A stretch of DNA of 64,000 nt from a virus (lineage: Duplodnaviria; Caudoviricetes). The notes beneath the pieces were generated by a model. It made no database searches. It was given only the letters and a program-made list of their open reading frames with translations, and had not been told where the DNA came from. The DNA lies in the IMG/VR virus record IMGVR_UViG_3300025018_000091; one strand, 5' to 3'. This document shows positions 3,524 through 7,084 of this stretch, in pieces (the stretch's first letter is position 1; the number at the start of each line of letters is the position of its first letter). The translations under genes and the position numbers were made by a program.

Positions 3524-3881
3524 TGGTGGAGATGCGGGGCTCCGACTCCCCGGTCCAAAGCATTCATCATCAAATATCGTTCACAGACTTAGCCAACATT
3601 AACGTTGATTGGCGACGTTGGTAAATACTCGCTTCACCAAACCAGTTACTGTTTATTTCGCTTGCAATTCCGTAACCAAATTGTTTGCTATTCTTCGTGG
3701 GTTAAATGTCTTTTGAGTACCAAGAATATCTCTTCTCAGACATTCCAATTAAGCAGCTTGTGCAACTGGAGCAAATGCGTTATCGTTTGCATTTATACGT
3801 TGGTTGCTTTTTAACGAGATTGCAATCATTCCCGGTCTGCATTTTGATTAAATCCTACCCTGTCGAATCCAATTCATCCCC
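3524..3881 (-). ncRNA. ssrA: tmRNA; tag reading frame 3790..3749 encodes ANDNAFAPVAQAA
   Basis: 5' GGGGATGAATTGGATTCGAC, 3' CATCTCCACCA, G3:U70 pair, resume codon GCA after ATAAAT, tag ending in AA-stop. Confidence 0.97.
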
Positions 3882-3893
3882 ATGTTTAAGTAA

Positions 3894-4247
3894 CTACTTC
3901 CCAATAAATAAAACCAATGGAGGCATATAGTATATTTGTTCTTTAGAATAATCACACCATTTAGTTTCAAATGTTATTCCAATATCTCCATTAGCGTGCT
4001 GAGAGACGCATAATGTTCCATTTATATATTTTTTATTAGACAATACCTCTTTATCAAAATTTTTATCTATATCTAATATATGAACAACATTATCTTTATC
4101 TATTGATTTTTTATCATAAAGATTTTTTAAATAAATATATATATCATTAATACTATTAAACTGTTTATCAAAATTTATTGAATTAATAGAAAAAAGATAT
4201 CTATCATACATAGAACGGTAACTATCATTTTTACAAAAAATTTTCAT
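3894..4247 (-). CDS. Hypothetical protein
   Basis: 117-aa ORF between tRNA-Thr and tmRNA. Confidence 0.55.
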   Translation of the reverse strand: MKIFCKNDSYRSMYDRYLFSINSINFDKQFNSINDIYIYLKNLYDKKSIDKDNVVHILDIDKNFDKEVLSNKKYINGTLCVSQHANGDIGITFETKWCDYSKEQIYYMPPLVLFIGK

Positions 4248-4249
4248 AT

Positions 4250-4323
4250 TGGAGCCGAAAACCAGTATCGCACGGGTGTCTATTCTTTACGAGAGAATTA
4301 TTCTACTTTTGAACTATATCGGC
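4250..4323 (-). tRNA. tRNA-Thr(CGT), atypical D/T loops
   Basis: Acceptor GCCGATA/TTTCGGC (one mismatch), anticodon arm ATTCT-CT CGT AA-AGAAT, T-loop TGCGATA, CCA. Confidence 0.8.
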
Positions 4324-4798
4324 TTATTTTTATATTATCAGCGATATGATTAAAATATCTGTAAGAACTTTGTTCTGTGAATTTTATCTGTTCAGAAATA
4401 TCTATAACTATTAGTTTAATTCCTTTATCTATACATCTCTGTATTTTCTTTTGATCATTATCTATTGTTTTTAGATAATTTTTATAAATTGGTTTATAAT
4501 GAAAAATTCCATTTAACTCAAATGCCAATTTAAGATCTGGTATATAGATATCTAACTCTAAATCAATTGTTTTAATATCATTGAATTTAACTGTTAAAAT
4601 TGGAAATGTTGTTTTTATTTGACCTTCAACCCACTTTTCCAATTTTGATCTTCTTATGCCATTAGTTTTATGTGTATTATTATATGTTGCTGCGCAACTA
4701 GAAGAACAGAAACTATTAATTGTCTTTTTTATTTGATTTGGATATTTGTCAAATTTAATTCCACATTGCGCACATTGAACAGACTCTATAGTTTTCAT
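4298..4798 (-). CDS. Zn-finger plus Vsr/PD-(D/E)XK-type endonuclease
   Basis: CAQCG and FCSSSC; ELDIYIPDLKLAFELNGIFHY; stop codon inside tRNA-Thr(CGT). Confidence 0.8.
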   Translation of the reverse strand: MKTIESVQCAQCGIKFDKYPNQIKKTINSFCSSSCAATYNNTHKTNGIRRSKLEKWVEGQIKTTFPILTVKFNDIKTIDLELDIYIPDLKLAFELNGIFHYKPIYKNYLKTIDNDQKKIQRCIDKGIKLIVIDISEQIKFTEQSSYRYFNHIADNIKISRYSSKVE

Positions 4799-4991
4799 AG
4801 AAAGAAAAAGACATTTTCTAGAACAATATATAGATTGCCTATTATTTGCTTTACCAAATTTACTTTGAATATCATGTTTAGTTCTACGAAAAAAAATTAT
4901 TACAATTAGGACATTGCAATTCTACTAAATCCCTAGATTGAAATGCATTTAAATAATCAATAAATTCTATTGTGTTTTTAGCTAGCATACT

Positions 4992-5065
4992 TGGAGCTGA
5001 CACCGAGTAATGCTCTCGGTTCCCAACATTACCACTGTTGAATAATACTTTTATACTATGTCAGC
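4992..5065 (-). tRNA. tRNA-Thr(GGT), atypical D/T loops
   Basis: Acceptor GCTGACA/TGTCAGC, anticodon arm CAACA-GT GGT AA-TGTTG, T arm CCGAG-AGCATTA-CTCGG, CCA. Confidence 0.8.
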
Positions 5066-5068
5066 ATT

Positions 5069-5144
5069 TGGAGCCCGCAATCGGATTTGAACCGACAATC
5101 TTTCGCTTACAGGGCGATTGCATAGCCAATCATGCTCTACGGGC
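5069..5144 (-). tRNA. tRNA-Thr(TGT)
   Basis: Canonical cloverleaf, GG in D loop, TTCAAAT T-loop, CCA. Confidence 0.95.
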
Positions 5145-5148
5145 TTAG

Positions 5149-5244
5149 TGAAGGTTTTCGCCGATATTAAGTTCCTCTACCGGAAACACGGTCTGGAATA
5201 TCAGGGTTACTTCACGAACTACCTTCAACACCTCGTGACCCTTC
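5149..5244 (-). ncRNA. Structured leader RNA with pseudoknot (HDV-like ribozyme topology candidate)
   Basis: GGGTCAC/GTAACCC, TGAAGGT/ACCTTCA and a long GATATT..AATATC hairpin, followed by GGCGAAA. Confidence 0.45.
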
Positions 5245-5250
5245 ATACAC

Positions 5251-5278
5251 AATATAACTCAATATTAGCAGATGTCAA
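5251..5278 (-). promoter_or_regulatory. Sigma70-like promoter TTGACA-N16-TATATT upstream of the Thr tRNAs
   Basis: Intergenic; one of 8 copies with the same spacing. Confidence 0.75.
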
Positions 5279-5284
5279 GGGGGA

Positions 5285-5671
5285 TTATTTTTTAAAATTA
5301 CCGATGGTCGTATGAAATTTGTGGCGACCATCGGGCGACCTTGTTATCTCGCTTGTCTTTGTTAATTCTAATTCTAACCTAATTGCTTCTAATTTTTCTG
5401 AATATATATTTAGCCACATATAATTAGGACTTATATAAATATGATTTTCATATTCAAATTCAACTTCTTGTCCTTCATATTTTCTCCACAGATATAAATT
5501 TGGTACAACTTCTTTACGAATAACAGAAATATGTGGAGCATATCTTTGCTTATTGTAATCAACATATTTTGGTATTAGAGCCTGATAATAATTTGAAATT
5601 TCAGGATCTATCTCAATGATTAATTTAAATGGATCGTTAAAATACCTTAATGTTCCAATTGATTTGAACAT
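5285..5671 (-). CDS. 2H phosphoesterase (T4 57B/Acb1-like or cyclic phosphodiesterase)
   Basis: Two HxS/T motifs: PHISV and FHTTIG. Confidence 0.7.
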   Translation of the reverse strand: MFKSIGTLRYFNDPFKLIIEIDPEISNYYQALIPKYVDYNKQRYAPHISVIRKEVVPNLYLWRKYEGQEVEFEYENHIYISPNYMWLNIYSEKLEAIRLELELTKTSEITRSPDGRHKFHTTIGNFKK

Positions 5672-5832
5672 GACTAATTTCTAGAAGTTAAGTGCCAACC
5701 TTTGCAAGCATCACAATAATAACAATCTAATTCAACAAACCCCTCACTACGCTGAATAATTATTGCAGTTTCTGCCTCTTTCTCGGTGGAATATCTTTTT
5801 TTATTCGGAAATTCAGGACAGTGTTTCATAAC

Positions 5833-6147
5833 TCAAATACCATTAATTACGGCAAGTAAGTTGAGCTTACCATCTTGCGTCATTATAGCCTGCTTTAATA
5901 ATTTTGCTTTTTGTCTTTTAAATTCATCACCAGATATTTCTAATGATTCGCAATATTTTTTAAACGTCTTTATTTTTATAGACCAAGTTTTATTAGTATC
6001 AAGACACCTCCAACCAAATCTTAATTGAAAGGGTCTATCTTCTATACGAATTGATGGCAATCCATTATTTTTAACATGTTCTTGCATGTCTTTTATCATG
6101 GCATCAAAATCATCCCAATTGTCTTCAGTATCATCATCTCCATGCAC
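5833..6147 (-). CDS. Hypothetical protein (start uncertain)
   Basis: Frame is open further upstream without a clear ATG. Confidence 0.55.
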   Translation of the reverse strand: MHGDDDTEDNWDDFDAMIKDMQEHVKNNGLPSIRIEDRPFQLRFGWRCLDTNKTWSIKIKTFKKYCESLEISGDEFKRQKAKLLKQAIMTQDGKLNLLAVINGI

Positions 6148-6304
6148 TTTTGATATAGCAGAAATAATTTGTGCAGATTCCTCAAATGGAATAGTTTCTC
6201 CATTATTATAACTGTATAATTTTTTCTGAGCCTCTTCGTATGTTAGTTCTTTTTTTATATAGAATTATATATCACAAATTTTCGCCTCTCATTTACCAAG
6301 ATAA

Positions 6305-7084
6305 TTATTCATTACGAAATATGTCAACCCCCATTTTAAAAATGTTATTTAAAAATGACTGGTCTTTTGTAAAAATTGGTAATTCAGTATTAACAATCCA
6401 TTTATTCTTAACAATACCATCTACAACTTTTGGTACTTTATAACATGCCGCACCACGCCTAAATGATTGAGGATATTCATTAAAATCTATACCGCACTCT
6501 TGTTTTAACAAATCAATCTTTTCATCAGTACTAAGATCGTTTAACATATCTTTAATTGCATTTTTATCATGCTTTTTTAGAAACTCATAAAAACAAGCAA
6601 ATCTAATAGCAGTATGAAAATTATTCTGCTGTTTATAAATAATTGTATTAATAGCTTCTGTTATAGTTGGCACGGTAAATACTTGTGAAGTAAATAATGC
6701 ATCACCCATAAGATTTAAATCCATATTAGATGCATAGATATTAAAATGTTGAGTAGCAATTGCAGATGTAATAGAACAAATTTTTTGAAGTCTATTATCA
6801 TACCAAGGCATAGTATCTGGATTCTGATCATTGCGGGTTACTACAGTAATCTCATCATTATGTTGATAAGCAAATAATGCACCATCAATTTCCATACATA
6901 ACTTAACCGTTGTTGAAAGCATGCTTTCGGCAAACTTGTTTCCATATGGTTTATCTAGTAAGGACGTAACTTTATTAAATGAGCGCCCATTAACGTTGAT
7001 AATTATGGGCACCCTATTTAATAGACGATAATTGTTGGTATCGATATAAGTATCGACCCTATCTTTTAATTTTTGAGAGGACAT
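6305..7084 (-). CDS. Thg1-like protein (tRNA-His guanylyltransferase family), divergent active site
   Basis: IIINVNGRSF (canonical RVDGKAF), QHNDEIT, FTSQVF, FRRG motifs. Confidence 0.8.
   Translation of the reverse strand: MSSQKLKDRVDTYIDTNNYRLLNRVPIIINVNGRSFNKVTSLLDKPYGNKFAESMLSTTVKLCMEIDGALFAYQHNDEITVVTRNDQNPDTMPWYDNRLQKICSITSAIATQHFNIYASNMDLNLMGDALFTSQVFTVPTITEAINTIIYKQQNNFHTAIRFACFYEFLKKHDKNAIKDMLNDLSTDEKIDLLKQECGIDFNEYPQSFRRGAACYKVPKVVDGIVKNKWIVNTELPIFTKDQSFLNNIFKMGVDIFRNE

Follow-up and report, generated by a model that had tools for sequence, protein, structure and literature searches.

The window analysed here spans 64,000 nucleotides of a longer contig, about 444 kb in length, that comes from an uncultured giant phage of groundwater, and the best-matching public DNA run is labelled an aquifer metagenome. 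Its gene content includes rIIA, an NAD-dependent DNA ligase, a Thg1-like enzyme, homing endonucleases and many tRNAs. All genes around the element described below are encoded on the minus strand, where a promoter is followed by a structured leader RNA, tRNA-Thr genes and a tmRNA (Table 1). From the position of the promoter, transcription is predicted to start near 5244; relatives with and without the leader share an equivalent promoter at the equivalent place.

Table 1 Features of the leader and its operon, and short versions of the element in relatives. Positions are those of the window unless a locus is named.
Feature	Position	Strand	Remarks
128-aa gene	5671-5285	-	Upstream neighbour of the leader
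Hairpin, then U-run	between the 128-aa gene and the promoter	-	
Sigma-70-type promoter	5278-5251	-	-35 TTGACA 5278-5273, 16-nt spacer, -10 TATATT 5256-5251; near-consensus (11/12 matches)
Structured leader RNA, ~100 nt	5244-5145	-	Predicted transcript start to the base before tRNA +1
GGGUCAC	5241-5235	-	P1a of the first-pass annotation
H1 5' strand, UCACGAG	5238-5232	-	Covariation; RNAalifold on unfitted alignment A2
Pseudoknot 5' strand, UGAAGGU	5227-5221	-	First-pass P2a; in the H1 loop; pairs with 5155-5149
H1 3' strand, UUCGUGA	5218-5212	-	Inside the first-pass "11-nt segment" and the start of first-pass P1b
GUAACCC	5210-5204	-	First-pass P1b
Weak outer helix 3' strand, CCC	5206-5204	-	With GGG 5241-5239
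H2 5' strand, CCG	5191-5189	-	Within the conserved stretch CCAGACCGU (5196-5188)
H3, variable inner hairpin	5187-5171	-	GUUUC, 7-nt loop, GGAAC; core of the first-pass "P4-like hairpin"
H2 3' strand, CGG	5163-5161	-	
GGCGAAA	5162-5156	-	C at 5160
Invariant C5160 and G/A-AAA	5160-5156	-	Linker from H2 to the pseudoknot 3' strand
Pseudoknot 3' strand, ACCUUCA	5155-5149	-	First-pass P2b; ends 4 nt before tRNA +1; followed by CUAA, then tRNA +1 at 5144
tRNA-Thr(UGU), operon gene 1	5144-5072	-	Rfam tRNA model 47.8 bits; missed by ARAGORN
tRNA-Thr(GGU)	5065-4995	-	Cloverleaf by eye; encoded CCA to 4992; unusual T-loop AGCAUUA
HNH-type endonuclease ORF	4798-4298	-	
tRNA-Thr(CGU)	4323-4253	-	
tmRNA	3881-3524	-	Standard one-piece hit
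Short version	L018 3788-3849		
Short version	L020 3104-3163		
Short version	L005/L011, about 5917-5979		
Short version	L008, about 6232-6324		
Short version	L006, before tRNA-Thr(CGU)		

The operon (3524-7084 on the minus strand of the window) is common to a phage family represented here by the window and loci L001-L025. It consists of a Thg1-like gene, zero to three small genes, a promoter, tRNA-Thr genes, usually for three or four isoacceptors (L001 has none), and a phage tmRNA with an ANDN...AA tag. The small genes often include the 128-aa gene, a candidate 2H phosphoesterase on the basis of faint PF22547 hits to its homologues. Some members (the window, with the ORF at 4798-4298, L014, L016 and L022) carry endonuclease ORFs between the tRNAs.

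Several RNAs of the operon family have unusual features of their own. The anticodon loop of tRNA-Thr(UGU), CCUGUAA, has C at position 33 in place of the near-universal U, and the same loop is found in L014, L016 and L018. The tRNA-Thr(GGU) of the window is called by neither ARAGORN nor Rfam, while its homologues in L014, L019 and L025 are called tRNA-Thr(ggt) by ARAGORN; its anticodon-loop region GUAAUG is complementary to its own T-loop CAUUAC. The Rfam permuted-tmRNA model matches 3749-3958 on the minus strand with 47.8 bits against a gathering score of 47. The match overlaps the spacer upstream and, at its 5' side, the standard tmRNA hit; it is probably shared tmRNA sequence, not a second gene. 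Elsewhere in the family, tRNAs with a CUA anticodon, labelled 'Pyl' by ARAGORN, occur in L008 (9838-9911 and 10097-10169) and L009 (9523-9596). These are candidate amber suppressors, and stop codons may be recoded in part of the phage family.

A first-pass annotation of the single sequence had drawn the leader as a pseudoknotted RNA with the topology of an HDV-like ribozyme, made of P1 (GGGUCAC/GUAACCC), P2 (UGAAGGU/ACCUUCA), a P4-like hairpin and a GGCGAAA strand resembling J4/2. All of its strings are present at their places in the minus strand between 5244 and 5149. In the window sequence alone the pattern is only mildly unusual, with a nested MFE z-score of -0.65; a perfect 7-bp helix arises in 15% of shuffles, and an interleaved helix pair like the one drawn in 3.8%. 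The single sequence is not compelling, and the choice between proposed helices thus falls to comparative data.

Relatives were collected by several routes. A search of IMG/VR with the Thg1-like gene yielded 11 loci (L001-L011) with the equivalent operon, and the long leader was absent from all 11. In most of these loci the promoter lies 11-36 nt from the first tRNA, and one has an unrelated leader of about 70 nt; the closest relative among them is without tRNA-Thr genes. The 128-aa neighbour led to closer relatives that bear the leader, and a pattern scan of metagenomes added another. One IMG/VR search with the same neighbour found no relatives, and three further neighbour look-ups (L094-L098) did not find the leader. 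Among GenBank phages there were no close DNA relatives, the sole match being a tRNA fragment, and exact-word scans of IMG/VR with the leader/tRNA junction and with the tRNA 3' half gave 0 hits. A degenerate leader pattern had 66 hits in JGI metagenome contigs, of which three were real and two of those already known. The public sequencing runs listed as containing this phage included no RNA run, and the reads of four aquifer DNA runs yielded only tRNA fragments of other organisms and did not cover the leader. The element is rare, since the pattern scans, made on IMG/VR and on JGI metagenome contigs, brought up no phages outside its clade, which are uncultured giant phages of groundwater and soil. 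Since most relatives place the equivalent promoter 11-36 nt from the tRNA, the leader is optional: an insert, not a required gene.

Ten distinct leaders were obtained, from the window and nine uncultured relatives (L012, L014, L019, L016, L022, L020, L049, L025 and L018). A covariance model, R1, was seeded with seven of them. It scores 115 bits on the window leader and recovered the non-seed leaders L018 (E 2.5e-5) and L025 (E 1e-6); no second copy was found in the window, and nothing was found in the leaderless loci. Together with five short versions described below, the set is small and represents perhaps five or six lineages. Small-window searches of Rfam 15 with the leaders of the window and L018 returned no family at E<=10, and the leader thus matches no RNA family described there.

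Pair counts over the ten leaders support three helices. H1 (5238-5232/5218-5212) is 94% paired, with double changes at five of its seven pairs; its first pair is U-A in nine leaders, C-G in one and G.U in none. The loop-to-tail helix, the P2 of the first-pass annotation (5227-5221/5155-5149), is 91% paired and includes a G-C to A-U double change, a count unbiased by model fitting because this helix was left out of the covariance model. In H2 (CCG/CGG, 3 bp, 5191-5189/5163-5161), pairing is complete (100%). U-A takes the place of C-G as its first pair in three of the ten, L012, L019 and L018, each of which stands beside a close relative with C-G (the window, L014 and L025, respectively). In the ten-sequence alignment, slid controls score far lower than H1, P2 and H2, and RNAalifold on a MAFFT alignment unfitted to any structure returned H1 and H2 and nothing else.

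Between the strands of H2, all ten leaders have a hairpin of their own (H3) of 5-6 bp at the same place, unrelated in sequence, followed by an A/U-rich strand of 7-10 nt; within the close clade its fourth pair is U.G, C-G or U-A, as judged by eye from the alignment rows. The linker from H2 to the pseudoknot 3' strand has invariant columns C, A, A, A and A in alignment A2. The outer helix GGG/CCC is 60% paired across the ten leaders and uncertain.

These comparisons changed the earlier drawing. The pairing UGAAGGU/ACCUUCA is kept in all versions of the element and covaries. The proposed P1, in contrast, is 62% paired, its central pair is never formed, and it conflicts with the covarying H1, so that GGG/CCC is the only part of it that may hold. 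From the P4-like hairpin, the closing H2 and the variable H3 survive, and the pieces as drawn are 45-76% paired. What proved apt was the caveat of the first-pass annotation that the leader might be a different pseudoknotted non-coding RNA. On the comparative evidence, the leader is a conserved H-type pseudoknot, in which loop bases of a supported hairpin form a second, likewise supported stem with a strand that lies outside it.

Short versions of the module were found in relatives in the spacers before other tRNA-Thr genes (Table 1). They have H1 and the pseudoknot without H2 and H3: a 5-6 bp hairpin with GUU-n-GGU in its loop comes first, then an A-rich strand and a tail that complements the loop, and 2-4 nt further on the tRNA begins. 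Their loop/tail pairs include AUGGGU/ACCCAU, UUCGGU/ACCGAA, GAGGGU/ACCUUC and GUAGGU/ACCUUC. Across the distinct loop/tail combinations, several standard pair types occur at three of the seven positions, and the core GGU:ACC is invariant apart from one G.U wobble. An anchored match of 6/7 arises in 18% of shuffles, so a single instance proves little; all 15 long and short instances score at least 6/7. In all 15, the 5' strand of the drawn pseudoknot helix lies in the H1 loop, and the gap from the pseudoknot end to tRNA +1 is 2-5 nt. L018 and L025 offer an alternative register of equal score, and alternative registers, along with a U.U mismatch, misled an automated search for the longest match between loop and tail; a MAFFT alignment of three short versions was too poor for pair counts. 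In a scan of 206 kb, a simple descriptor matched 33 times, compared with 15 times in shuffles, and 13 of the 33 matches end 2-5 nt before a tRNA-Thr start, which illustrates specificity and is not an independent test because the descriptor was derived from these instances. A pattern for the short version had 80 hits in IMG/VR, of which only the two L005/L011 contigs were real. The pseudoknot element is restricted to positions before tRNA-Thr genes.

A second conserved spacer RNA, of about 115 nt, precedes tRNA-Thr in relatives without the leader (L003 2458-2572, L007 7047-7159 and L098 2172-2289) and is absent from the window. It is 86% identical across the three diverged phages, and its hairpins covary (GCUAG/CUAGC versus GUUAG/CUAAC; CCAG/CUGG versus UCGG/CCGA and GGAG/CUCC). 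It has no Rfam match at E<=10.

Other identities for the leader were considered and set aside. A 33-codon frame on the minus strand, from an ATG at 5246 to a TAA at 5145, fills the leader exactly, with the ATG at the predicted transcript start and the TAA ending at the tRNA. As a leader peptide it is not conserved: the frame is cut to 7-11 codons in L012, L014 and L019, L016 has a different, non-homologous frame running into the tRNA, and the other relatives have no ATG. The frame is thus broken, absent or replaced in every relative while the helices are kept, so the leader does not code for a peptide. Among self-cleaving ribozymes, the hammerhead, pistol, hatchet and twister classes were rejected since their core motifs are missing by eye and none has an Rfam match. 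A T-box or riboswitch has no model support and its core motifs are missing, and a degenerate piece of a tRNA or tmRNA gives neither a drawable cloverleaf nor a model match.

The headline of the first-pass annotation was an HDV-like ribozyme of the theta type, in which C5160, as the J4/2 cytosine, would form the HDV active site together with P1, P2 and P4, with cleavage 5' of P1. HDV-like folds are nested double pseudoknots with P1, P1.1, P2, P3 (3 bp plus L3) and P4, and P1, of 6-7 bp, starts with G1, usually in a G.U wobble, at the cleavage site. Theta ribozymes are a tRNA-associated subfamily from gut phages, whose cleavage sites adjoin tRNA 3' ends, 77% of them within 1 nt (PMC10879173). 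Like these, the leader is phage-encoded and physically linked to a tRNA gene, with interleaved strands, a 7-bp helix (H1 and P2 both have 7 bp), pairing from a loop to the 3' end, a hairpin domain and a conserved C opening the last linker. With H1 as the helix, the strand order resembles that of HDV (helix 5', P2 5', helix 3', hairpin domain, C-R-AAA, P2 3'). The invariant C5160 directly follows the hairpin domain and precedes the P2 3' strand by 4 nt, and so fits the position of the theta catalytic C (PMC10879173).

The elements of the active site are nevertheless absent. In the ten leaders the P2 5' strand is followed after only 1-3 nt by the covarying H1 3' strand, which leaves no room for P3 and L3 and no partner for P1.1; without P3 and L3, C5160 would have no active site. 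Covariation is missing from the proposed P1, and the first pair of H1 is never the G.U expected of P1. About 20 nt, not 2, lie between H1 and the hairpin domain, and the short versions have neither this domain, the equivalent of P4, nor the conserved context of the C. The placement differs too, in that the leader lies 5' of the tRNA with its 3' end, not its 5' end, beside it. Cleavage would be expected about 95 nt ahead of tRNA +1, only about 6 nt into the predicted transcript, and would thus take off about 6 nt 5' of H1 and leave the element on the tRNA. The covariance-model search that the first-pass annotation had proposed found no Rfam 15 ribozyme family at E<=10 in small-window searches of the window and L018 leaders. 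A loosely defined HDV descriptor made for this analysis could be threaded in 41-151 inconsistent ways per sequence and was thus of no use. Given the missing P3, L3 and P1.1, the U-A first pair, the lack of an Rfam match and the 5' position, we conclude that the leader is almost certainly not an HDV-like or theta ribozyme, an identity that we regard as extremely improbable.

Our preferred, still tentative reading, with a probability of about 0.42, is that the leader would be a non-catalytic structured RNA module acting in cis in the phage tRNA-Thr/tmRNA operon and removed by RNase P. In the H-type pseudoknot, seven bases of the H1 loop pair with the last bases of the leader, and the long connecting strand carries a small closed domain of H2 and the variable H3 and ends in the invariant C and the A-rich run, which would lie along H1 and make A-minor contacts as in classical pseudoknots. 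Such a fold would tie up the whole leader, so that no more than 2-5 bases, rich in A/U, stay unpaired ahead of tRNA +1. RNase P of the host would then cut at +1, freeing a compact leader RNA of about 100 nt as a by-product, with its 3' end held in the pseudoknot and its 5' end beside a helix. The module may shield tRNA folding from leader or spacer sequence and fix the presentation of the precursor for 5' processing.

This processing role is suggested by the covariation of H1, H2 and the pseudoknot in ten leaders, with H1 and H2 also recovered by RNAalifold, by the detection of non-seed leaders with the model, by the 2-5 nt spacing in 15 of 15 instances and by the complementary short versions. 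Other considerations weigh on the other side. The set of 10 long and 5 short versions is small. The RNase P of bacteria tends to prefer leaders that are unstructured, and a helix as close as 2-5 nt to the cut might thus impede processing instead of aiding it. In addition, several unpaired bases are conserved (CCAGA before H2, C5160 and GUU in the H1 loop), which is more than a simple insulator would need and hints at a binding partner or chemistry.

A binding partner is the basis of the main rival, in which the leader would be a stable small RNA that is freed by RNase P, much as species 1 and 2 of the phage T4 tRNA cluster are small stable RNAs encoded with tRNAs, and that acts in trans, binding a protein or RNA through these conserved unpaired bases. 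Both released ends would be buried in structure, favouring stability; the conserved single-stranded CCAGACCGU, together with the H2 junction, has the appearance of a surface for recognition, and a near-consensus promoter drives the leader. The short versions, however, are without the conserved junction, and a function in trans leaves the strict link to tRNA-Thr unexplained, so that we consider this reading unlikely. Another reading makes the leader a sensor or regulator, either a riboswitch or an element binding tRNA-Thr or ThrRS. In its favour, the core GGU:ACC is a threonine anticodon and codon, this core is all but invariant, the element is found only before tRNA-Thr genes and its junction is compact and conserved. 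Against this, the pairing extends to 6-7 covarying base pairs in cis, the H1 loop of 12-23 nt is without anticodon-loop features of the U33 type, only a tRNA lies downstream in place of a terminator or ribosome-binding expression platform, and no riboswitch or T-box model matches, which together make such a sensor highly improbable.

The place of the leader directly after the promoter of a long structured-RNA operon with an inserted ORF would also suit a put-like RNA that modifies RNA polymerase for processive antitermination, giving read-through of the tRNAs, the endonuclease gene and the tmRNA. For such an RNA the fixed 2-5 nt spacing to tRNA +1 would be meaningless, the short versions lie between tRNAs and not beside promoters, relatives read the equivalent operon without the leader, and put RNAs are two stem-loops without a pseudoknot; we judge antitermination very improbable. 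Chemistry, the other possibility raised by the conserved bases, would make the leader a new class of self-cleaving ribozyme that cuts at or near the tRNA 5' end and matures it independently of RNase P. This would explain the fixed spacing in 15 instances and several unpaired invariant bases including C5160; genes for RNA end healing adjoin (the candidate 2H phosphoesterase and the Thg1-like enzyme), and tRNA-linked phage ribozymes are a precedent (PMC10879173). The gene neighbourhood is weak evidence, however, as leaderless relatives have the same neighbours, and the short versions reduce the core to H1, the pseudoknot and the A-rich linker, which is very small. RNase P is moreover universal in bacteria, most relatives do without the element, and Rfam reveals no known ribozyme signature, and we hold a ribozyme of this kind to be very improbable. 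A broader proposal, speculative to the same degree, is that the pseudoknot represents a new, very small class of catalytic or processing-directing RNA that makes or licenses the tRNA-Thr 5' end without normal RNase P recognition, possibly with the 2H phosphoesterase and Thg1-like enzymes, and with GGU:ACC tying it to tRNA-Thr.

Among known RNAs, the leader has close structural counterparts in classical H-type pseudoknots (frameshifting, tmRNA, SAM-II, preQ1). In both, a loop pairs with a downstream strand, the stems have 6-9 bp, and an A-rich run just 5' of the 3' strand of stem 2 could enter the minor groove of stem 1. The leader differs in its third loop of 16-69 nt with an extra conserved domain, in its pre-tRNA context, in the lack of a ligand, ribosome or frameshift site, and in the absence of an Rfam match. 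The tRNA cluster of phage T4 encodes small stable RNAs, species 1 and 2, which are structured, are not tRNAs and are co-transcribed with the tRNAs. The leader likewise is a structured RNA co-transcribed with phage tRNAs and would be freed by tRNA processing enzymes, a likeness in context, not in sequence or structure. A literature search found nothing fitting on pseudoknotted pre-tRNA leaders or on ribozymes upstream of phage tRNAs.

An HDV-like ribozyme placed 5' of a tRNA would have been a first, and the comparative data speak strongly against one here. With the tempting ribozyme call removed, what is left is a well-supported structured RNA absent from Rfam. It is a module of 60-100 nt that always lies directly before tRNA-Thr genes; in their operon, a phage tmRNA is combined with tRNA-Thr genes for three or four isoacceptors.
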